Source of the DNA: Nitrospirota bacterium
Lineage (GTDB): Bacteria > Nitrospirota > UBA9217
Reading direction: 5' to 3'
Length of the DNA stretch: 64,000 nucleotides
Assembly (NCBI GenBank): GCA_963818475.1
Contig: CAWFSF010000006.1
Span: 352,001-416,000 of the forward strand
Made by a program: the position numbers and the translations under genes. A model generated the notes under the pieces. The model was given only the letters and a program-made list of their open reading frames with translations, searched no databases and was not told the origin of the DNA. The number at the start of each line of letters is the position of its first letter. Within the stretch, counting starts at the first letter, position 1. Shown here piece by piece: positions 8,579 through 22,018 of this stretch.

Positions 8579-9259
8579 CTACGTCAGTTTTTCCAGGGCT
8601 TCCTTCGCAGCTTTCTGCTCGGCTTCTTTTTTGCTCTTGCCTGTTCCACGACCATAGAGCTGCCCCTTGACCATCAGTTCCACGTCGAATTGTTTCTGGT
8701 GGTCAGGGCCGGTCTCGGACACGACGCGGTATTCAGGCAGCAGCTTCAAGCGCTCCTGGCAGCGCTCCTGGAGCGCTGTTTTGTAGTCAAGGGAAGTGCG
8801 TGATGCGCAGGTTCTCTTGATCACGTCTTCGAAAAATCGAAGAATGAAGGTTTCGGCTGTATCCTTGCCGGCATCGAGGTACAATGCGGCGATGAGCGCT
8901 TCAAGGGCGTCCGCCAGCAGCGAGTCCTTGTCGCGTCCGCCGGTCTGCTCTTCGCCCTTGCCGAGCAGCAGGTAGGCGCCGAGCTCCAGGGCACGGCCGA
9001 TCACGGCAAGTGCAGGTTCGCTCACGACCGCTGCTCTGAGCCTCGAGAGGTCTCCTTCGGTCGAGTCGGGGCAGGTCCTCATGAGATGCTCGCTCACGAT
9101 GAGCGAGAGGACGGCATCTCCGAGGAACTCCATCCGTTCGTTGTGGTAGGGGACCTTGTTTTCGTTGGCGAAGGATTTGTGCGTTAAAGCACGTTCAAGG
9201 AGCTGGGGCTCCTTGAACGTGTAGGAGATGCTTTGCTGAAGATCGGCGAGTGTGCGCAT
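8579..9259 (-). CDS. rnc: Ribonuclease III
   Basis: NERMEFLGDAVL signature and dsRBD DYKTALQE...GKSKKEAEQ. Confidence 0.96.
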   Translation of the reverse strand: MRTLADLQQSISYTFKEPQLLERALTHKSFANENKVPYHNERMEFLGDAVLSLIVSEHLMRTCPDSTEGDLSRLRAAVVSEPALAVIGRALELGAYLLLGKGEEQTGGRDKDSLLADALEALIAALYLDAGKDTAETFILRFFEDVIKRTCASRTSLDYKTALQERCQERLKLLPEYRVVSETGPDHQKQFDVELMVKGQLYGRGTGKSKKEAEQKAAKEALEKLT

Positions 9260-9260
9260 C

Positions 9261-10502
9261 TTACTTCCGGAAGCGCTTGAACACCAGGCACGCGTTCGTG
9301 CCGCCGAAACCGAAGGAATTGGACATGACGACATCGACCTGCGCTTTTCGTGCGGTGTGCGGGATGTAGTCAAGGTCGCATTCAGGATCGGGATTTTCAA
9401 GATTGATGGTCGGCGGGAGCACCCCGCGGTCCAGCGCAAGAACGGAGATAACGGCCTCCACGCCGCCCGCTGCACCGAGCAGATGGCCGGTCATGGATTT
9501 CGTGGAACTCACCGGGATCTTGTATGCATGGTCGCCGAACACGGTCTTGATGGCAATGCTCTCGAGTTCGTCGCCGTACTTGGTGGAGGTTCCATGGGCA
9601 TTGATGTAGCCCATGTCCGCCGGCGCAACGCCCGCGTCCTTGATCGCCATCTTCATGCATCGGGCCGCGCCTTCGCCGTTCGGGGCGGGAGAGGTGATAT
9701 GATAGGCATCGCCCGAGGCGCCATAGCCGACCACCTCGGCGTAGATGCGGGCCCCGCGCTTGAGCGCCGATTCCATCTCCTCAAGGACCACCACGCCGGA
9801 GCCTTCTCCCATGATGAAGCCGTCGCGTTCGGCATCGAAGGGGCGGCTTGCGCGCTGCGGTTCATGGTTCCGGGTGGAGAGGGCCTTCATGGCGTTGAAT
9901 CCGCCCACGCCGGTCACACAGATGCACGATTCGGTCCCTCCGGCGATCATGGCATCGGCATCGCCGCGCTGGATCCATTTGAACGCATCGCCGATGGAAT
10001 GGGTTCCCGTGGCGCAGGCCGTGACCACGCTGATGTTGGGGCCTTTGGCGCCGAAGCGCATGGAGATATTTCCCGCTACCTCGTTGATGATCAGCATGGG
10101 GATGTAGAAGGGCGTGATCTTGCGGAAACCGCGCTCGAGATAGACCTTGTGGTACTTCTCGATGGCCGGGAGCCCGCCTATGCCGGCGCTTACAATGACG
10201 CCGACGCGCTCGGCGTTCTCCGGCGTGATCTTGAGTCCCGACATGTCCATGGCCATCTGGCTTGCCGCGATCGCCAGATGAATGAACCGGTCCATTTTTT
10301 TGATCTCTTTGGGCTCGATGTACTTTTCCGGTTCGAAGCCGTGGATCTCTCCCGCGATCTGCGTCGGAATGGTCTTGTCATCGAACTGCGTAATGGGGCC
10401 GATGCCGGACTTGCCGCTGATCAGGCCTTCCCAGCTTGTTTCCGTATCGAGCCCGACGGGCGTGATCATGCCGACACCGGTTACAACAACTCTTCTCTTC
10501 AA
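9261..10502 (-). CDS. fabF: 3-oxoacyl-ACP synthase II
   Basis: [21 protein letters not shown] and [13 protein letters not shown] start after a GGAGG RBS. Confidence 0.96.
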
Positions 10503-10624
10503 AAGAGGATACCTCCTGCGATAATAAATCCGAAAAGCCAAAAAACCTGCTCTCACAGCTGCCGGAGAGGTCTTCTGGCTTTTTGGATTTTGTGAGACGG
10601 ATTGGCTGCGTGACGTTGAATCCG

Positions 10625-10858
10625 TTACTTTTTTGCCTTGATATAGTCGATCGCGTTCTGCACGGTCGCTATCTTTTCCGCATCCTCATCCGGGATCTCA
10701 ACGCCGAATTCTTCCTCGAGCGCCATCACGAGTTCCACGGTATCGAGCGAGTCGGCACCGAGGTCGTTGACGAATGATGCCTCAGGTTTCACATCCGCTT
10801 CCGGAACGCCGAGCTGCTCAGAAATGATCTTTTTTACCTTTGCCACTATCTCTGCCAT
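10625..10858 (-). CDS. acpP: Acyl carrier protein
   Basis: [20 protein letters not shown]. Confidence 0.97.
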
Positions 10859-10939: not shown

Positions 10940-11680
10940 CTACATGTACATGCCGCCGTTCACATGGATGACCTGACCGGATATGTACGATGCCCAGGGT
11001 GATGCAAGGAACCTGACCGCATTTGCAACATCGGCGGGAGTGCCGAGCTTGCCCAGGGGGATCTGCTTCGCGAGCTCTGTTCTGACGGTCTCGGACAGGG
11101 CCTGCGTCATGGCCGTTTCGATGAAGCCGGGGGCCACGGCATTGGCGGTGATGCCGCGATTCGCATATTCCCGGGCGATGGTCTTGGTAAGGCCGATGAG
11201 ACCGGCCTTGGACGCCACATAGTTCGCCTGGCCAGCATTGCCCATGGCGCCCACGATCGAGGCGATGTTGATGATCGTACCCCCGCGCTGCTTGGTCATA
11301 TACTTGAGCGCTGACTTCGTGCACAGGAACGCGCCTTTTAGATTGATGCTGAGCACCAGGTCCCAGTCCTCGTCCTTCATCCGGAGGATAAGCCCGTCGC
11401 GGGTGATTCCGGCGTTGTTCACCAGGATATCGATCCTGCCGAATTTCTCGATGACCTGGTCGATCATGGCGGTCACGTCGGCCGACGCCGCCACGTTCGC
11501 TTTGAGGGCAAGCGATTTTCTGCCGAGCGCTTCAATATCCGCCGCGGTTTTCTGGGCTGCTTCGAGGTTCACATCGCAGATGGCGACGTCAGCACCGTCT
11601 GTTGCGAGCGCCAGTGCAATGTCCCGTCCGATGCCTTGTGCTGCGCCTGTGACCAGTGCTATTTTGCCGTTCAAGCTCAT
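10940..11680 (-). CDS. fabG: 3-oxoacyl-ACP reductase
   Basis: TGAAQGIG, NNAGITRD, YVASK and VNGGMYM; fab operon context. Confidence 0.95.
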   Translation of the reverse strand: MSLNGKIALVTGAAQGIGRDIALALATDGADVAICDVNLEAAQKTAADIEALGRKSLALKANVAASADVTAMIDQVIEKFGRIDILVNNAGITRDGLILRMKDEDWDLVLSINLKGAFLCTKSALKYMTKQRGGTIINIASIVGAMGNAGQANYVASKAGLIGLTKTIAREYANRGITANAVAPGFIETAMTQALSETVRTELAKQIPLGKLGTPADVANAVRFLASPWASYISGQVIHVNGGMYM

Positions 11681-11766
11681 GCGATCGCTCCTGCCGGATT
11701 GTGCGTGGTGTTCTGTCCCGTGTTATTTTTTCGAGCAGCTGCCGCGGTCGGGTGTCTGTCAGACTG

Positions 11767-12703
11767 CTATGAAACGCCGATGGCATGCAGCGCATCGTTC
11801 ATGCTCTTTTGGTCTTCTACGTTCAGGATCTTTGCTTCCTTGGCGATCCGCTTCACCAGTCCGGAAAGTACCCTGCCGGGGCCTACCTCGATGAAGGTGT
11901 CGACGCCGTCGGCTGTCATGCGGTTTGATCGAGTCTTCCCAGAAGAGCGGAGCGCTGATTTGTTTGATGAGCGAAGGTCTCAGGTCAGACGCTTTCTGTA
12001 TGTACCGCGCATCGGCATTATTTACGATCGGTATCGTGAGATCGCTGATGCTGATGTGCTCAAGTTCCTTTGCCAGCCGGTCGCCTGCCGCCTGCATCAT
12101 GGCGCAGTGTGATGGCACGCTTACCGCAAGCGGCACCACCTTTTTCGCCCCGCGGGCTTTGGCGAGTTCCATGGCCGCTTCCACGGCTTTTTTCTCGCCG
12201 GCGATCACGATCTGGCCCGGGGAGTTGTAATTTGCAGGGGCAACTATACCATTTTCGGAAGCGTCAAGGCAAGTTTTTTCTACGTCCTGCCGCTCCATGC
12301 CGAGAATGGCCGCCATGAGTCCGGCGCCTTCAGGAACGGCCTCCTGCATATAGCGGCCGCGCTTCTGCACGAGCGCAACGGCATCTTTGAGGGTCAGGCC
12401 TCCGGCACAGGTGATGGCCGTATACTCGCCGAGACTATGGCCTGCAGCAGCCACGGCAACAACTCCCCGGCGCTCGAGCGGCCTCAGCATGGCGATGCTC
12501 GACGCAAGGATGGCGGGCTGGGTATTTTCCGTCAGGTTCAGTTTCTCGACAGGGCCCTGGGTGCACAGGTGCGCAAGGTCGAAGCCAAGCACCGTGCTCG
12601 CGGCTTCGAAGACCTCGCGGGATTCCCCGAAGTTCTCATAGAATTCTTTGGCCATGCCCACGTACTGCGAACCCTGGCCGGGAAAGAGGAATGCGATTTT
12701 CAT
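11767..12703 (-). CDS. fabD: Malonyl-CoA:ACP transacylase with one +1 frameshift near 11922
   Basis: FPGQGSQ, GHSLGEY and PSHC. The conserved FIEVGPGRVLSGL continues in the shifted frame. Confidence 0.92.
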
Positions 12704-12799: not shown

Positions 12800-13993
12800 T
12801 TAGCCCTGTAGTTCCTTGAATTTTTTGATCATGACCGGCAGAACCTCGAGCACATCACCCACGATGCCGTAGGTGGCAACGCTGAAGATGGGCGCATCGG
12901 GGTCCTTGTTGATCGCGACGATGACATCGGACGACTGCATGCCTGCCACGTGCTGGATGGCACCGGATATGCCGCACGCGATATAGAGTTTGGGGCAAAC
13001 GGTCTTGCCGGTCTGGCCTACCTGGTGCGAGTAGGGGATCCAGCCCTCATCCACTGCGCCGCGCGTTGCAGCAACGGCTCCGCCCAGGACCTTGGCAAGT
13101 TCTTCGAGGAGGTGAAAGTTCTTGATGCCGCCCATGCCGCGGCCGCCGGCCACAATAATGTTCGCTTCGCAGATGTTCACGGTCTCGCCCAGCTCTTCCA
13201 CGGTCTTTATGACCCTGGTGCGGACATCACCGGCCTGCGTGAACTTCACCTCGATGATGTCGCCGGTGCGGGCATCATCGCGCGGAGCCGGCTTCATGAC
13301 CTTGTGCCTGACCGTCGCCATCTGCGGCCGGTGGTTGGGGGAAACGATGGTGGCCATGATGTTGCCGCCGAAGGCAGGCCGGGTCTGGTGCAGGTTGCCG
13401 GTCTCGGGGTCGATATCGAGCATGGTGCAGTCTGCCGTAAGTCCGGTGTAGAGCTTTGCCGCTACCTTGGGAATGAACGAACGGCCGATCGCCGTTGCTC
13501 CGGCGAGAATGATCTCCGGTTTGTGGAGCGTTGCGAGGGTGGTGAGCACGGCGCTGTAGGAATCGTCGTTAAAGTCCTTGAGGGCGGGATCATCGGCCAG
13601 GTAGACGACGTCGGCCCCGTACGCGATAAGGTCTTTGGCCTTCTCCTTGATGCCGTGGCCGATGAATACGGCTGAAAGTTTTGCCTGACGCTTATCAGCC
13701 AGCTTTCTTCCCTCTCCGAGCAGCTCAAGCGCTACGCTTGAGATGCTTCCCTTGTGCTGCTCAGCAAAGACCCAGACGCCTTTGAACGCTGAAAGGTCCT
13801 TTGCTGCAGCAACTGCCTCTTCGCCGGTCCGTTCTATGGCCTTGAATTCGCAGGCCTCGATGCACGCGCCGCAGAGGGTGCAGCTTTCCGTGATAAAGGC
13901 CTTGCCGCTGCGCATCTCAATGGCGCCAAAGGGGCAGACGGAGACACAGGTCTCGCAGCCGGTGCAGGTGTTTGATATGACTTGAACGCTCAC
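12800..13993 (-). CDS. etfA: Electron transfer flavoprotein alpha subunit with an N-terminal 2x[4Fe-4S] ferredoxin domain
   Basis: [12 protein letters not shown] and [11 protein letters not shown], then [25 protein letters not shown] and [11 protein letters not shown]. Confidence 0.93.
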
Positions 13994-14082
13994 AGGAAGC
14001 TCCTTGTTAATAATGATGCAGGATTCATGATGCATGTCTCGTCGTGAAATATCCTGGATCTTGCATCCTGAATCATGCGTCG

Positions 14083-14868
14083 TTAAATCAACGACTGTTC
14101 TTTCAACTTTTTCACGACCTGCTCCACCTGCTGTTCGATCGTCCCGGACAAAATCTCCCGCTGACCGCGGGGGGCGGGCGGGAATATCCGAACGACCTTC
14201 GTGGGCGAACCCTTGAGGCCGAGCATGTTCTCGTCAGCGCCGATATCCTTGGCCGTCATCGTCGTGACCTTGAGGCTTTTGGCCTTCATTTTGCCCTTCA
14301 GCGACGGCAGCCGAGGCTGGTTGATCTCCTTGACCACGGTTATCAGTGCCGGGAGAGAGGACTCCACCACATCGTATCCGTCGTCCATCATGCGCTCGAC
14401 GGTCATTTTACCGTCGGCTATGGCCGTTATTTTCTTGATGTAGGCGATGAAGGGAATGCCGAGCATGTCCGCGGTCTCGGGGCCGACCTGGGCCGTGTCG
14501 CCGTCGATCGCCTGTTTTCCCGCGATAACGAGGTCGTAGCAGCCGATCTTCTTTATTCCCTGGGCAAGGGTGTAGGATGTGGCCCACGTGTCGGCTCCGG
14601 CAAAAGCCCGGTCCGAAAACAGAACGACATCGTCAACGCCCATGGCCACGGCCTCTTTAAGCGCATCGGCGGCCTGCGGCGGTCCCATGGTCACGGCCGT
14701 CACCTTGCCGCCGTGCTGTTCGCGCAAACGAAGCGCCTCTTCAATGGCGAACATATCAAAGGGGTTGATGATGCTCGGGACACCGTCACGGATGAGCGTG
14801 TTCGTTTCCCGGTTGATCTTCACTTCTGACGTGTCCGGAACCTGTTTGACCAGAACGATGATATTCAT
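14083..14868 (-). CDS. etfB: Electron transfer flavoprotein beta subunit
   Basis: KQVPDT, NPFD, GADTWATS and GKQAIDGDTAQVGP. Confidence 0.94.
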   Translation of the reverse strand: MNIIVLVKQVPDTSEVKINRETNTLIRDGVPSIINPFDMFAIEEALRLREQHGGKVTAVTMGPPQAADALKEAVAMGVDDVVLFSDRAFAGADTWATSYTLAQGIKKIGCYDLVIAGKQAIDGDTAQVGPETADMLGIPFIAYIKKITAIADGKMTVERMMDDGYDVVESSLPALITVVKEINQPRLPSLKGKMKAKSLKVTTMTAKDIGADENMLGLKGSPTKVVRIFPPAPRGQREILSGTIEQQVEQVVKKLKEQSLI

Positions 14869-15012
14869 CTGCATCTCCAAAATTCCAAATAACAAATCAC
14901 AAATTTCAAATAAACTCCAGATCTCAATTACCCAAATTCGAAACGTTTTATACTTGTTATTTCGATATTGGAATTTATTTGCGATTTGGTGCTTGTGATT
15001 TTGAGCTTGTTT

Positions 15013-16170
15013 TTACTTCTGCCTCGTGGCTTCCTTGATCATATCGAGGGCGATGACATTGCGCTGGATCTGGTTCGTTCCCTCATAGATCTGGAGGATC
15101 TTGGCATCGCGCATCATCTTTTCGACAGGGTACTCTTTCATATAGCCCGAACCGCCCATGATCTGGACAGCGTCGGTTGTGACCTTCATGCCCGTGTCGG
15201 TGGCGAAGAGCTTTGCCATGGCGGAAGCGCGGGAAAAGTCCTTGGCTCCGCTGTCCATCATGCGGGCAACTGCGTAGACCAGCGCTCGTGCAGCCTCGGT
15301 CTGGGTCTGCATATCCGCGAGCATGTGCTGTATGGCCTGGAAGGAGGTGATGGGCTGGCCGAACTGGACCCTGCTTTTTGCAAACTTGATGCACTCGTCG
15401 ATGGCGCCCTGGGCCACGCCCACGCCCTGGGCTCCCACGCCCGCACGGGAGCAGTCGAGGGTCTTCATGGCCACGATAAAGCCCATGCCTTCCCTGGCGA
15501 TCAGGTTTTCCTTGGGGATGCGGCAGTTGTTGAAGATGAGCTCGGTCGTTGATGATGCGCGGATGCCCATCTTGTTCTCTTTTTTGCCGAAGGTGAATCC
15601 GGGCGTGCCTTTTTCCACGATAAAGCACGAGGCGCCGCGGGCGCCCTTGGACTTGTCGGTGATGGCGATGACCGTGTATATCTGTGCCTCGCCGCCGTTC
15701 GTGATCCACTGTTTCGTGCCGTTCAGGACATATTCATTTCCTTCGAGCTTAGCCGTGGTCTGTACGCCGCCGGCATCGCTGCCCGCGTTCGCTTCGGTCA
15801 GGCCGAATGCCGCGAGGTTCTTTCCTGATGCGATGTCGGGCAGATACTTCTTCTTCTGTGCGTCGGAACCGTGGAGCAGAATGGGGTACGTGCCGAGCGC
15901 GTTGGCCGCATAGCTGGTGGAAACTCCGACGCAGGCCTTCGATATCTCCTCGATGGCGATATAGAGATCGAGGCTCTTTTTGCCGAGGCCGCCGTATTCT
16001 TCGGGAATATAAATACCGAAGAGGTCCGCCTGGGCCATTGCCTTCATGATATCCGTCGGGAACTTGTTCTGTTCATCCAACTCTGCCCGCACCGGCACGA
16101 TCTTCTCTACCGCGATCTGTCGTGCGAGATCGCGTATCATGATCTGATCCTCTGTCAACAAATAGTCCAT
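15013..16170 (-). CDS. Acyl-CoA dehydrogenase family protein (Bcd/CarC-like)
   Basis: FGLTEANAGSD, NGTKQWITNG, KMGIRAS, RVQFGQPI and IYEGTNQIQR (catalytic Glu). Confidence 0.93.
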   Translation of the reverse strand: MDYLLTEDQIMIRDLARQIAVEKIVPVRAELDEQNKFPTDIMKAMAQADLFGIYIPEEYGGLGKKSLDLYIAIEEISKACVGVSTSYAANALGTYPILLHGSDAQKKKYLPDIASGKNLAAFGLTEANAGSDAGGVQTTAKLEGNEYVLNGTKQWITNGGEAQIYTVIAITDKSKGARGASCFIVEKGTPGFTFGKKENKMGIRASSTTELIFNNCRIPKENLIAREGMGFIVAMKTLDCSRAGVGAQGVGVAQGAIDECIKFAKSRVQFGQPITSFQAIQHMLADMQTQTEAARALVYAVARMMDSGAKDFSRASAMAKLFATDTGMKVTTDAVQIMGGSGYMKEYPVEKMMRDAKILQIYEGTNQIQRNVIALDMIKEATRQK

Positions 16171-16243: not shown

Positions 16244-17224
16244 CTACCACCGAACGAGCGCCGAGGCCCAGGTCAGGCCGCCGCCGAAAGCCTCGAACAG
16301 GATGAGGTGATTGTCCTTGATCCTGCCGTCGCGGACCGCTTCGTCCAGCGCCATAGGGATCGAGGCCGCCGAGGTATTTCCATACTTGGGAAGAGTGAGC
16401 ACGACCTTTTCCATGGGCATGTTCAGGCGCTGCGCCATGGCCTGGATGATCCGCAGATTTGCCTGGTGTGGAACGAGAAAATCGATCTCCTCCGGTTTTA
16501 CCTTGTTGTGCTCAAGCGCCTCTTGGGCGACGCCTTCGAGCGCCCGGACCGCAGCCTTGAAGGTTTCATTGCCTTTCATCCGGATGAAGTGCATCCGCCT
16601 GCGGATCGTATCGTGGGACGGCGGGTGCGAGGCGCCGCCTGCCGGAACATAGAGCAGGTCCCCGAAGGCGCCGTCGGAATGCAGATGCGTAGAAAGGATC
16701 CCGCGCTTGCCCGCATGCCGCTGGATCACGACCGCTCCTGCCCCGTCTCCGAAGAGGATGCAGGTCGTGCGGTCCTCCCAGTCGGTGAACCGCGACAGGA
16801 CCTCGGCCCCTACGAGGAGGATGTTCTTGTAAGCACCGGACTTAATGAACGCATCGGCCATGGACATTCCGAAGATGAACCCTGAACAGGCGGCAGCGAT
16901 ATCAAAGGCCGCTGCATTCTTCGCCCCGAGCTTTTCCTGCAGCACGCATCCCATGCTCGGCAGGATGGTATCGGGCGTCATCGTGGCAACCAGAATGAGG
17001 TCCAGGTCCTGGGCTCCGATCCCCGCGGCTTTCAGCGCTTTTTTGCCTGCTTCATAGGCAAGGTCGGACGTGGTCTGGCCCTTTTCCGCTATCCGGCGTT
17101 CCTTGATACCAGTGCGCTCAGTGATCCAGGCGTCGCTCGTATCGACGAGTTTTTCCAGGTCCTGGTTGGTGATGATCTTTTTCGGGGCGAACGAGCCCGT
17201 TCCTGTTATCCGCGCGTGGATCAT
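16244..17224 (-). CDS. fabH: 3-oxoacyl-ACP synthase III
   Basis: AACSGF, PHQANLRI and YGNTSAAS. Confidence 0.95.
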   Translation of the reverse strand: MIHARITGTGSFAPKKIITNQDLEKLVDTSDAWITERTGIKERRIAEKGQTTSDLAYEAGKKALKAAGIGAQDLDLILVATMTPDTILPSMGCVLQEKLGAKNAAAFDIAAACSGFIFGMSMADAFIKSGAYKNILLVGAEVLSRFTDWEDRTTCILFGDGAGAVVIQRHAGKRGILSTHLHSDGAFGDLLYVPAGGASHPPSHDTIRRRMHFIRMKGNETFKAAVRALEGVAQEALEHNKVKPEEIDFLVPHQANLRIIQAMAQRLNMPMEKVVLTLPKYGNTSAASIPMALDEAVRDGRIKDNHLILFEAFGGGLTWASALVRW

Positions 17225-18234
17225 TTTGCTTTCGCAAGCTCCATATTCTTTTCGATGTCCTCGTGGATATGCTTGTTGACCTCGCTCTTTGCAAGCTCCG
17301 CGGCAACGCGGACGGCATTCTTGATCGCCCGGTCAGAGGACCGGCCGTGGCTGATGATGCTGATGCCATTGATGCCGATGAGGGGCGCGCCGCCGTATTC
17401 AGCGTAGTCAATGCGCCGTTTGAGCGACCGGAAGGCCGGCCGCATCATGAAATAGCCGAGCTTTCGGATCAGGTTGTCGCCGATATTCTCGCGGATGATG
17501 AGCCCGATGGTCTCGGCAACGGCTTCGGAGATCTTGAGCACCACATTACCGATAAAGCCGTCACAGACCACGACATCGGCATTGCCGCTCATGACGTCGC
17601 GGCCCTCCACATTGCCGATGAAGTTGAGCGACGTTTCCGTCAGAAGTTTGAACGCTTCCTTCGTCAGTTCATTTCCCTTGGTCGCTTCTTCACCGATGGA
17701 AAGGAGGCCCACCCTGGGGTTCATGTTCTTCAGAAGGTATTTCGAGTAGACCTCGCCCATGATGGCGAACTGCAGGAGGTGGTTCGGCTTGCAGTCCACA
17801 TTCGCGCCGACATCCAGAATGATGCACGTGCCTTTCATGGTCGGCATGATCGTGGCGATAGCCGGCCGCTCGATCCCCTCAAGCTTGCCAAGGACGAAGA
17901 GCGAGGTGGCCATGGCCGCTCCGGTATGCCCTGCACTGATCACCGCGACCGCTTCACCGCTCTTGACGAGTTCATTGGCGACACGGATCGAGGAGTCTTT
18001 TTTCCTGCGGAAGACCGTGGCGGGAGAATCGAGCATATCCACCACCTCGGTTGCATTCCGTATCTCCAGGGGAAGCGCCTTTGTGTTATGGTGTTTGTTG
18101 AGCTCTTCCTGGATTGCCTGCTCGATCCCCACAAGGATGATGCCGACGCCGAATTCCTTTGCCGCCTGGACTGCACCGGCAACAACGGCATGGGGCGCAT
18201 TATCCCCGCCCATAGCATCAACAGCGATCTTCAT
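17221..18234 (-). CDS. plsX: Phosphate acyltransferase
   Basis: IAVDAMGGDNAP, LDVGANVD and VVCDGFIGNVVLK. Confidence 0.96.
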   Translation of the reverse strand: MKIAVDAMGGDNAPHAVVAGAVQAAKEFGVGIILVGIEQAIQEELNKHHNTKALPLEIRNATEVVDMLDSPATVFRRKKDSSIRVANELVKSGEAVAVISAGHTGAAMATSLFVLGKLEGIERPAIATIMPTMKGTCIILDVGANVDCKPNHLLQFAIMGEVYSKYLLKNMNPRVGLLSIGEEATKGNELTKEAFKLLTETSLNFIGNVEGRDVMSGNADVVVCDGFIGNVVLKISEAVAETIGLIIRENIGDNLIRKLGYFMMRPAFRSLKRRIDYAEYGGAPLIGINGISIISHGRSSDRAIKNAVRVAAELAKSEVNKHIHEDIEKNMELAKAK

Positions 18235-18313: not shown

Positions 18314-18496
18314 TTATATCTGCTGGACGGTGATGACTTCGCGGCCATTGTAGGTACCGCAGGAGATGCAGGCGTGGTGAGGTTTTTTGACCTCCTGGCA
18401 CTGCGGGCAGATCCCGACGCTGGGGGCTTTCAGGTGCTTATGGGTGCGCCTTTTGTCTCTGCGTGACTTGGATGTTTTGTGTTTTGGATTAGCCAT
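18314..18496 (-). CDS. rpmF: 50S ribosomal protein L32
   Basis: MANPKHKTSKSRRDKRRTH...CPQC...PHHACISCGTY. Confidence 0.96.
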   Translation of the reverse strand: MANPKHKTSKSRRDKRRTHKHLKAPSVGICPQCQEVKKPHHACISCGTYNGREVITVQQI

Positions 18497-18514: not shown

Positions 18515-19030
18515 CTATTTTTTGAATATGTCCTTTAGTACGGAAAAGGCTCCGAATGTTCCTTGATCATCACGCTTGCAGTTACACTCCGCTTCATTGA
18601 GGTCCTTGCCGCAGAGGGGGCAGAGACCTTTGCAATTCGCATCATGAAGCGGCACCATGGGAACGGCGATGAGCAGCTGTTCCTTGATAATGGCAACGGG
18701 CTCGATCTCCTCGCCCTGATAAAATTCCGTATCAAGCTCGGACCGGTCGAGCTCATGTTCAGCCCCGGTCTTCACGGTACTTGCCGGCGCCAGTTCAACG
18801 CTTACGTCTGCATCGATCCTGTACGGAAAGGATTTCAGGCAGCGGCTGCATTCGAGCAGGGGTTCAGCTTGCAGCCGGCCAGCAACATGAAGCAGTCCCG
18901 CTCCCGACGGCTTGAAGTTCAGCACCGCCGTAAAAGCCGTTGATGCTGTCCCTTGGTCGAACAGATCGAGCTTGTGGGCAAGCTCCAGGGTAAGCCCCTC
19001 TGGCGGTATGTCGTTGATCTTAATAGCCAT
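18515..19030 (-). CDS. yceD: YceD/DUF177 family protein
   Basis: ECSRCL and CKGLCPLCG; located upstream of rpmF. Confidence 0.88.
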   Translation of the reverse strand: MAIKINDIPPEGLTLELAHKLDLFDQGTASTAFTAVLNFKPSGAGLLHVAGRLQAEPLLECSRCLKSFPYRIDADVSVELAPASTVKTGAEHELDRSELDTEFYQGEEIEPVAIIKEQLLIAVPMVPLHDANCKGLCPLCGKDLNEAECNCKRDDQGTFGAFSVLKDIFKK

Positions 19031-20633: not shown

Positions 20634-22018
20634 TTAAGGAGCAGTAGTTCTCTCTATTGCAGCGTAAACGATCTCCACCATGCGCTTCAGGTATTTTGTT
20701 GACATCGTGAGCGGCGGCATGAGCACGATGACGTTGCCCAGCGGCCGGATGATGAGCCCCCGTTTTCTGCATTCCAGAACGACCCGGATCCCGGCCTTGT
20801 CTTCGAGGGGGTAGGGTCGTTTCGTCTTCTTGTCCCTGACCAGTTCAATGCCGACCATAAAGCCTTTTTGCCGGACATCTCCCACATGTTGAAGTTCCCT
20901 TAATGCCAGCAGTTGTTGTGACAGGAACGCGATCTTGGGCTGGAGTCTCGATAAAGTGCTTTCCGAATGGAACAGGTCGATATTGGCGATCGCGGCAGCG
21001 CAGGCCAGCGGATTGCCAGTATAGGTGTGGCCGTGAAAGAATGTTCTTAGATCACGGTATTCTCCCAAAAAGCCCTCGGTATATCCTGTTCGTCGTGAGC
21101 GTTGCCGCCAGCGGCAGATACCCCCCGGTAATGCCTTTGGCAACGCAGAGGATATCGGGAGCGACGTCCTCGTGCTCGCAGGAGAACATCTTCCCGGTCC
21201 TGCCGAAGCCGGTCGCGACCTCATCGGCGATCAGCAGAATATTGTGCTTTGTGCAGAGTTGCCTGATCTTTTTCAGATATCCCGGAGGCTGCATGAGCAT
21301 GCCTGCCGCGCCCTGGACCAGCGGCTCGATGATGAGTGCCGCTGTTTCATGGCAATATTTCCTGATCACCCGGCCAGCCTGTTCCGCGCAGAACAACCCG
21401 CAGTCCGGGTAGGCCTTGCCGAAGGCGCAGCGGTAACAGTGCGGGGTCGGGATCTTGCGGGTCTTGAACAGCAGCGGCCGGTAGATCTCATGGAAGAGGT
21501 CGATGCCGCCGACGCTCACGGAGCCGATGGTGTCGCCGTGATACGATTCGGCAAGGGAAATGAAACCGGTCTTCCGGCGATAGACGGGTTTTTGCTGCTG
21601 CCAGAATTGGAATGCTATCTTCAGCGCGATCTCGACGGCCGTGGACCCGCTGTCGGAATAGAATACTTTTGCCAATCCCCGGGGGGCGATCGACACCAGT
21701 TTCTCAGCCCAGCAGGACCGCCGGCACGTTGGACAGGCCGAGCAGGGTGGAGTGGGCGATCTTCTTCAGCTGGGAAGCGACGGCTGCGTCGATCTCCTTC
21801 TTCCGATGGCCGTGGACCGTGACCCAGAGCGATGAGACCCCGTCAAGGTACTGCCTGCCCCGGATGTCGGTGAGAACGCAGCCCTTGCCGCTTTCGACGA
21901 TGAGCTGCGAACCTTTTTCCCATTCCTGCATCTGGGTGAAGGGGTGCCAGAGGTACTGTTTATCCAGCTTTTCGATGTGGCGGGCGGAGCTTTTTCTTTC
22001 GGCAGGTGTTTTGATCAC
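20634..22018 (-). CDS. bioA: Adenosylmethionine-8-amino-7-oxononanoate aminotransferase; two +1 frameshifts
   Basis: [52 protein letters not shown] and [12 protein letters not shown] across three frames. Confidence 0.9.

Follow-up and report, generated by a model that had tools for sequence, protein, structure and literature searches.

A Bcd-like flavoprotein and its EtfAB partners within the fab operon of a Nitrospirota bacterium form a candidate ferredoxin-reducing enoyl-ACP reductase

We analyzed a stretch of 64,000 nucleotides (nt) from a Nitrospirota bacterium (assembly GCA_963818475.1, contig CAWFSF010000006.1; the whole stretch is called the window hereafter), in which an acyl-CoA-dehydrogenase-fold flavoprotein (ACAD) and the two subunits of an electron transfer flavoprotein (Etf) are encoded amid the genes of type II fatty-acid synthesis (FAS-II), making this trio a candidate for the reductase of enoyl groups bound to acyl carrier protein (ACP). 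Gene identities were assigned from Pfam and NCBIfam matches on the translations of the open reading frames (ORFs) of the window. Twelve genes, all on the minus strand, follow one another in the unbroken order yceD-rpmF-plsX-fabH-ACAD-etfB-etfA-fabD-fabG-acpP-fabF-rnc (Table 1), with intergenic spacers of 0–144 nt, the value of 144 nt applying if etfB starts at Met10, and the interval 12800–16170 runs exactly from etfA through ACAD. An earlier reading made from the sequence alone (the sequence-only reading) had claimed this order, the co-orientation and a lone consensus promoter, all of which were recovered by the ORF, Pfam, NCBIfam and promoter scans; its further claim that the window holds neither FabI, FabK, FabL or FabV nor any beta-oxidation gene stood when 40 further larger ORFs were scanned. 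The remainder of the window consists of housekeeping genes (trpS, purN, purM, htrA, ruvAB, and others). In anaerobes, fabK often lies between fabH and fabD, which is where the trio is found here, and this position in one co-oriented fab operon counts in favor of a role in FAS-II.

Table 1 Features of the fab operon of the window, from the promoter to rnc.
Feature	Position	Strand	Evidence and remarks
Sigma-70 promoter, TTGACA-17-TATAAT	19089-19061	-	12/12 consensus hexamer matches; directly upstream of yceD
yceD	18515-19030	-	First operon gene; PF02620, 88.6 bits
rpmF (ribosomal protein L32)	18314-18496	-	PF01783; TIGR01031, 79 bits
plsX (phosphate acyltransferase)	17221-18234	-	TIGR00182, 396.9 bits (cut-off 243)
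fabH (beta-ketoacyl-ACP synthase III)	16244-17224	-	TIGR00747, 452 bits (cut-off 292)
ACAD (Bcd-like acyl-CoA-dehydrogenase-fold flavoprotein, 385 aa)	15013-16170	-	Three Acyl-CoA_dh domains; putative enoyl-ACP reductase catalytic subunit
etfB (Etf small subunit)	14083-14895	-	Homology from Met10, so start probably near 14868
etfA (Etf large subunit, 411 aa)	12800-14035	-	ETF, ETF_alpha and N-terminal Fer4 dicluster
fabD (malonyl-CoA:ACP transacylase)	11759-12703	-	TIGR00128, 296.8 bits (cut-off 261)
fabG (3-oxoacyl-ACP reductase)	10940-11680	-	TIGR01830, 338 bits (cut-off 298)
acpP (acyl carrier protein)	10625-10858	-	TIGR00517, 122.6 bits; DSL serine motif invariant in 21 sequences
fabF (beta-ketoacyl-ACP synthase II)	9261-10556	-	TIGR03150, 667.6 bits (cut-off 494); homology begins near residue 20
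rnc (RNase III)	8579-9475	-	TIGR02191, 274 bits; listed ORF overlaps fabF, homology begins at residue 79

The ACAD possesses the N, M, and C domains of its fold, as identified with Pfam. Its closest match in the PDB is the butyryl-CoA dehydrogenase (Bcd) of C. difficile (5OL2_C, 422 bits), and it scores 401 bits with the Bcd of A. fermentans (4L1F/4KPU) and 317 bits with CarC. The best NCBIfam model is AcrC (acryloyl-CoA reductase), at 479.6 bits for a cut-off of 640, which places the protein outside this equivalog. E363, G364, and T365 of the YEGT motif are invariant across 79 ACAD sequences, E363 being the residue that we take to be the catalytic base of ACADs. Nine other positions (D49, G82, I113, A127, Q154, E161, F194, K197, and K351) are at least 90% conserved in the 79 orthologs and at most 15% in 14 paralogs, 11 of which carry a Pro at position A127. 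At least 7,900 protein clusters (90% identity) match the window ACAD at E ≤ 1e-100, a threshold that admits ordinary ACAD paralogs too.

Over 20 distant fab-linked loci, the ACAD shows a mean identity of 69.5% to the window protein, the highest in the operon, against 64% for AcpP, 58% for EtfB, 57% for both FabF and FabG, 56% for EtfA, 52% for FabH, 51% for PlsX, and 46% for FabD. Such slow evolution of a single-copy gene relative to its operon neighbors would suit an essential housekeeping function more than an accessory part in fermentation.

The Etf pair appears by similarity to be of the bifurcating type. EtfB is closest to CarD (6FAH_B, 264 bits), with five bifurcating Etfs scoring 208–264 bits and non-bifurcating ones 62–101 bits, and EtfA is closest to CarE (6FAH_A, 430 bits), with 290–430 bits for the bifurcating and 130–157 bits for the non-bifurcating Etfs; the five top matches of each subunit are all bifurcating. 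EtfA also carries an N-terminal ferredoxin-like 2x[4Fe-4S] domain (residues ~11–70, about 13826–14005), which the sequence-only reading had overlooked. The alignment of EtfA with CarE begins at residue 16 and so includes this domain, which almost all of 38 EtfA homologs retain.

The genome that contains the window (4.66 Mb in 7 contigs, 91% complete, 6% contamination) was searched for other enoyl-ACP reductases. The best score for FabK (TIGR03151) was 95 bits for a cut-off of 453, and the best match of an E. coli FabI query was FabG, with 44 bits. For FabV, no PF12241 match was found, in a search that lacks a positive control, as 0 of 14 control genomes matched either. A profile seeded with FabG recovered 13 SDR-like ORFs, two of which are FabG itself and the SDR domain of an ORF resembling a polyketide synthase (PKS); the best NCBIfam matches of the 11 further SDRs include neither FabI nor FabL. 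The PKS-like ORF (C6:1402092-1409579, 2495 amino acids (aa)) also contains two stretches of NMO type (PfaD/FabK-like), and its product may synthesize polyunsaturated fatty acids or polyketides.

The sole NMO protein of this genome (contig C5, 228120-229145), which gave the 95-bit FabK score, was considered as a FabK and rejected as FabX-like, its full-length alignment with 7E1Q, the FabX of H. pylori (PMC8626469), reaching 197 bits, compared with 62 bits for FabK. The catalytic His is conserved in it, as are three of the four cluster cysteines, those corresponding to C300, C308, and C320 of FabX, whose mutation destroyed the cluster (PMC8626469). Its gene neighbors are not fab genes, and a CCG/Fer4 Fe-S protein is encoded ~3.5 kb away. 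The presence of this FabX-like protein suggests backtracking unsaturated fatty-acid synthesis in an anaerobic member of the Nitrospirota. The window genome hence has a candidate for introducing unsaturation, yet no recognizable enoyl-ACP reductase.

We then compared 80 loci, one genome per species, whose ACADs are 67–96% identical to that of the window, by mapping the 12 window proteins onto each of them. The ACAD is accompanied by fab and etf genes in 28 loci, by fab genes only in 7, and by etfBA only in 14, and it stands alone in 31; several of the 7 fab-only loci are cut by contig ends, and two of them (L054 and L077) are truly devoid of etf genes. Conservation of synteny, on which the sequence-only reading had agreed beforehand to stand or fall, was found in the relatives, as the 35 fab-linked loci belong to at least six phyla (Nitrospirota, Actinomycetota, Margulisiibacteriota/Saganbacteria, Desulfobacterota-type, Omnitrophota, and Planctomycetota-labelled metagenome-assembled genomes (MAGs)), with a Pseudomonadota-labelled MAG in addition. 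The order is fabG-acpP-fabF-ACAD-etfBA in the Omnitrophota and the Planctomycetota-labelled MAGs. The ACAD tree broadly tracks the phyla, and at least six changes of the fab+etf label are forced on its well-supported branches.

Additional ORFs were observed at two of these loci. A 282-aa ORF without Pfam or NCBIfam match lies between etfB and etfA in an Omnitrophota complete chromosome (L059:9040-9888), and an insert of ~3 kb separates ACAD from etfB in an otherwise syntenic fab operon of a Nitrospirota (L022:8165-11126); of the four small ORFs in this insert, one has a SEC-C motif.

A census of reductases was made on 50 of the 80 genomes, all 35 with fab linkage plus 15 whose trio stands apart from fab genes, as opposed to the 30 "alone" loci; FabI was counted above 200 bits and FabK over its curated cut-off. 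Among the 35 fab-linked genomes, FabI was found in one (G031) and FabK over the cut-off in none, and as the window genome has neither, a canonical reductase is not consistently present alongside the arrangement. NMO matches in the same 35 genomes were full-length in 15 (140–320 bits), partial in 10 (~90–110 bits), and absent at E ≤ 1e-10 in the other 10.

The cysteine motifs of six NMO genes from the relatives' loci were read. Three of these genes lie between acpP and fabF in the operon of the trio and carry a CxxCxxxCxxxxC motif near residue 260 (L072:12197-13171, L049:12167-13147, and L082:6309-7271); they may belong to a third NMO type, one that contains Fe-S and is distinct from both FabK and FabX. 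The NMO gene of G011 has the FabX-type CxxxCxxxC...C.

The distribution was then surveyed in 151 Nitrospirota genomes at least 85% complete, with an ACAD ortholog defined by at least 72% identity. The ortholog is present in 80 genomes of 14 families, always in single copy, FabI (185–284 bits) in 54 genomes of 7 families, and FabK over the cut-off in 4 genomes. None of the 80 ortholog carriers has FabI at 185 bits or more or FabK over the cut-off, and FabV was matched in 0 of the 151 genomes (PF12241, in a search without positive control). The remaining 14 genomes comprise 10 of a family numbered f16, 2 incomplete ones of f1, 1 of f8, and 1 of f20. Family f5 has FabI together with NMO matches of 80–96 bits, and all 10 genomes of family f15 have the ACAD and no NMO match at E ≤ 1e-20. 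Family f15 includes complete genomes of 1.8–1.9 Mb and may correspond to Thermodesulfovibrio. Five complete genomes encode exactly one EtfA each, with the ACAD 1–6 kb away in four of them and 380 kb away in the fifth; fabH is adjacent only in family f1.

In a second survey, 131 Desulfobacterota genomes at least 90% complete were analyzed, with at least 57% identity for the ortholog and E ≤ 1e-35 for NMO matches. The ortholog occurs in 63 genomes, that is, in 1 of the 19 FabI carriers (with a weak FabI, 188 bits) versus 62 of the 112 non-carriers. NMO matches were found in 69 of the 131 genomes, often as several paralogs per genome, and 34 of the 63 ortholog carriers have neither FabI nor an NMO match. 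The anti-correlation of the ACAD with canonical reductases for which the sequence-only reading had proposed to test appeared in both phyla (0 of 80 carriers in Nitrospirota and 1 of 19 FabI carriers in Desulfobacterota).

The smallest gene sets were found in a few compact genomes. G023, a complete Omnitrophota chromosome of 1.14 Mb, encodes exactly one ACAD, in the order fabG-acpP-fabF-ACAD-etfB-x-etfA. No crotonase, FabI, or NMO protein was found in it, its single weak NMO match being GuaB3, and its 3HCDH matches are only Rossmann-level. Its sole SDR match to the FabL model is FabG, FabZ is present, and the lone MDR protein resembles Tdh. A single ACAD and no crotonase were likewise found in each of G024 and G014, G024 has no MDR match, and no NMO-family protein beyond weak TIM-barrel matches was found in G023, G024, G014, or G016. 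G023, G024, and G014 would possess a Bcd without a source of crotonyl-CoA and a FAS-II without a reductase, unless the trio is that reductase.

The gene identities, the operon position, the similarity to bifurcating complexes, the conserved synteny, and the distribution complementary to FabI and true FabK were observed, and what we infer from them is a substrate bound to ACP and not CoA, its chain-length range, NADH as the donor, and bifurcation to ferredoxin. We propose, with a probability of roughly 0.65, that FAS-II in this organism, as in many other anaerobes, relies on the ACAD-EtfB-EtfA trio as its enoyl-ACP reductase, and that this reductase is probably driven by NADH and reduces ferredoxin. 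A more ambitious version, to which we would give slightly less than even odds, is that the trio constitutes a widespread bifurcating enoyl-ACP reductase, a three-subunit ACAD/EtfAB enzyme with flavins and Fe-S clusters, that serves as the sole FAS-II reductase across much of the anaerobic Nitrospirota, Desulfobacterota, Omnitrophota, Margulisiibacteriota, and further phyla, each elongation cycle yielding reduced ferredoxin.

In the proposed mechanism, the Bcd-like ACAD would bind trans-2-enoyl-ACP and reduce its double bond from FAD, running opposite to a typical dehydrogenase, as Bcd and CarC do. The CarDE-like EtfAB would accept the hydride of NADH at its bifurcating FAD; one electron would then run downhill through the second FAD to the ACAD, and the other uphill through the two [4Fe-4S] clusters of EtfA to ferredoxin or flavodoxin. 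The predicted net reaction per elongation cycle is 2 NADH + enoyl-ACP + oxidized ferredoxin → 2 NAD+ + acyl-ACP + reduced ferredoxin. With the enoyl/acyl thioester couple near −10 mV, reduction by NADH is strongly exergonic and able to drive the reduction of ferredoxin.

A number of observations weigh against this proposal. Those of a first kind would favor an ordinary Bcd/EtfAB that uses short enoyl-CoA (crotonyl-CoA) for redox or energy purposes and whose location among the fab genes is incidental or a matter of co-regulation with growth. The closest solved relative of the ACAD is indeed a CoA-specific Bcd, that of C. difficile (422 bits), and public databases label the protein a butyryl-CoA or acyl-CoA dehydrogenase. 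The window genome possesses elsewhere a second ACAD as well as ECH and 3HCDH matches, so that a CoA substrate is conceivable there. In 14 of the 80 loci the trio is free of fab genes, with etfBA alone beside the ACAD, and in 31 the ACAD has neither etf nor fab neighbors. The publication on Margulisbacteria and Saganbacteria assigns the homologous genes to energy metabolism, as a putative Bcd/EtfAB, and judges bifurcation unlikely, citing an AMP-binding domain in the Etf (PMC6349859).

We nevertheless consider a CoA-dependent Bcd rather unlikely. No crt, hbd, or thl gene was found beside the stand-alone trios among 30 neighboring ORFs of 7 loci, the Bacillota ones having housekeeping neighbors, and 37 of the 80 Nitrospirota carriers are without any crotonase-fold gene. 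G023, G024, and G014 have the trio's ACAD as their sole ACAD and possess no crotonase or true 3-hydroxyacyl-CoA dehydrogenase. Fab-linked loci occur in six or more phyla, and a Bcd would leave carrier genomes without any enoyl-ACP reductase.

Observations of a second kind that speak against the proposal concern other reductases. FabI (5 genomes) or a true FabK (1 genome) coexists with the trio in 6 of the 15 searched genomes whose trio stands alone, and NMO genes coexist with it in 15 of the 35 fab-linked genomes (140–320 bits) and with the ortholog in 28 of the 63 Desulfobacterota carriers. The NMO of G020 (260 bits) and the trio-adjacent NMO of L081 are without a Cys cluster and resemble a real FabK. 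The suggestion of the sequence-only reading that the trio may replace the enoyl-ACP reductase is therefore supported overall but too strong where such FabK-like NMO genes coexist. Ten near-complete Nitrospirota genomes of family f16, nine of them single-contig (G114, G126, G134, G146, G152, G158, G173, G179, G182, and G188), gave no ACAD, no FabI above 60 bits, no NMO at E ≤ 1e-20, and no FabV; their SDRs match FabI only weakly, the best lead being a ~270-aa SDR 25–34% identical to part of E. coli FabI. As 14 of the 131 Desulfobacterota genomes likewise have no ortholog, FabI, or NMO match, other unrecognized reductases must exist. The FabI/ACAD split in Nitrospirota may also follow the split between aerobes and anaerobes, kin genomes not being independent samples; the Desulfobacterota result argues against oxygen physiology as the whole explanation.

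The true reductase could accordingly be an MDR, a divergent SDR, or a FabX-like Fe-S NMO that a low-potential donor drives backward, with the trio in an unrelated redox role. The genomes without ACAD ortholog, FabI, or NMO would be in line with this, as would the Cys-cluster NMO genes between acpP and fabF in the trio's own operon (L072, L049, and L082) and the one MDR protein of G023. We find it quite unlikely, since NMO proteins beyond weak TIM-barrel matches are missing from G023 (whose match is GuaB3), G024, G014, and G016, and all 10 f15 genomes have none at E ≤ 1e-20; the MDR of G023 is Tdh-like and G024 has no MDR match, and neither the top conservation of the ACAD in the operon nor the exclusion of FabI would be explained. 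Finally, an acyl-ACP dehydrogenase running in the oxidative direction with Etf as acceptor, for FabX-like backtracking toward unsaturated fatty acids or another acyl-ACP modification, would suit the normal chemistry of ACADs, the precedent of FabX for backward dehydrogenation in FAS-II (PMC8626469), and the existence of NCBIfam families of ACADs for carrier-protein thioesters (MbtN, RedW, and PigA, weakly matched here), but is very unlikely, as this role is already filled by the FabX-like gene in the window genome and many carriers, carriers without an NMO protein (all 10 of f15, and G023) would still have no reductase, and the Etf resembles the NADH-using bifurcating type and not a quinone-linked one.

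If it is an enoyl-ACP reductase, the trio would resemble the Bcd-EtfAB complexes of C. difficile (5OL2) and A. fermentans (4L1F/4KPU) both in sequence (422 and 401 bits for ACAD, 208–236 for EtfB, and 294–321 for EtfA) and in its proposed chemistry, in which NADH reduces an enoyl-thioester and, in a coupled step, ferredoxin. It differs from them in lying in a fab operon and not with crt, hbd, and thl, in the extra 2x[4Fe-4S] domain of EtfA, and in that its ACAD is the sole one in genomes without beta-oxidation or butyrate genes; it is proposed to act on ACP-bound chains of every length and to play an anabolic role. CarCDE, the caffeyl-CoA reductase-Etf of Acetobacterium woodii (6FAH), provides the best solved match of both Etf subunits, including the N-terminal ferredoxin domain of CarE, whereas the ACAD is nearer to Bcd than to CarC (422 versus 317 bits) and the context is FAS-II instead of caffeate respiration.

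With FabI, FabL, FabV, and FabK, the trio would share an identical enoyl-ACP reaction, and its distribution is complementary to that of FabI and true FabK. The folds are unrelated, SDR for FabI, FabL, and FabV, an FMN TIM barrel for FabK, and only ACAD and ETF folds for the trio, whose three subunits would bind three flavins and two Fe-S clusters and whose predicted reaction would consume 2 NADH and reduce ferredoxin. The FabX of H. pylori, an FMN/[4Fe-4S] acyl-ACP dehydrogenase/isomerase, is likewise a FAS-II flavoenzyme with an Fe-S cofactor at the enoyl/acyl step, and FabX-like genes co-occur with the trio; it differs by its NMO fold, by its oxidative direction, and by serving unsaturated fatty-acid synthesis beside FabI in H. 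pylori (PMC8626469). MbtN, RedW, and PigA are a precedent for an ACAD fold that accepts acyl groups bound to carrier proteins, but are dehydrogenases of secondary metabolism, and the ACAD scores far under their cut-offs (89.7 of 700, 257 of 650, and 250 of 500 bits, respectively).

Regarding expression of the operon, five promoter-like sites were counted in the region, compared with a mean of 4.9 in shuffles, the site upstream of yceD being the sole perfect match, and 19 terminator-like sites, compared with 12.7 ± 3.8. The 73-nt spacer between fabH and ACAD contains a terminator-like hairpin (16259–16236) followed by a 9/12 promoter-like site (16231–16203, minus strand), not above chance by shuffles. 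In a sediment metatranscriptome, short contigs were found over acpP, fabG, ACAD, and plsX, 69 of the 110 pieces being 90–95% alike, in a type of library that DNA may contaminate; none of the 110 pieces from this one library spans two genes, and the library offers no evidence of co-transcription. Elsewhere in the window, a 196-aa ORF (20634–21224, minus strand) matches the C-terminal part of BioA alone (model positions 263–418 of 419), and bioA may be split, frameshifted, or mis-assembled there.

The sequence-only reading had known of no described reductase class of this kind, and we likewise found no ACAD/Etf enoyl-ACP reductase in the full-text literature, supplements and subscription journals lying outside the scope of the search. 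In a 2022 review of the reductase classes, the terms "acyl-CoA dehydrogenase", "electron transfer", "ferredoxin", and "bifurcat" are all absent (PMC9260719). The paper on a genome-scale model of Eggerthella lenta states that no enoyl-ACP reductase is annotated and that "a novel enzyme family" may act (PMC10234575); no Eggerthella protein was among the best 120 matches to an Actinomycetota ACAD.

The many anaerobes without a recognizable enoyl-ACP reductase constitute an annotation gap for which the trio, if our proposal is true, names a single-copy candidate. An unrelated fold would be added to the enoyl-ACP reductases, and a complex of the Bcd/CarCDE type would have been recruited to an anabolic pathway built on ACP, where it would count as a new class of these enzymes. 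Genes recorded in metagenomes as "Bcd/EtfAB" of energy metabolism, such as those of a published analysis (PMC6349859), would have to be re-assigned. The energy accounting of lipid synthesis would change for organisms living near the thermodynamic limit, as the exergonic reduction of the enoyl group would yield low-potential ferredoxin, and an anabolic pathway would feed energy conservation or CO2 fixation.

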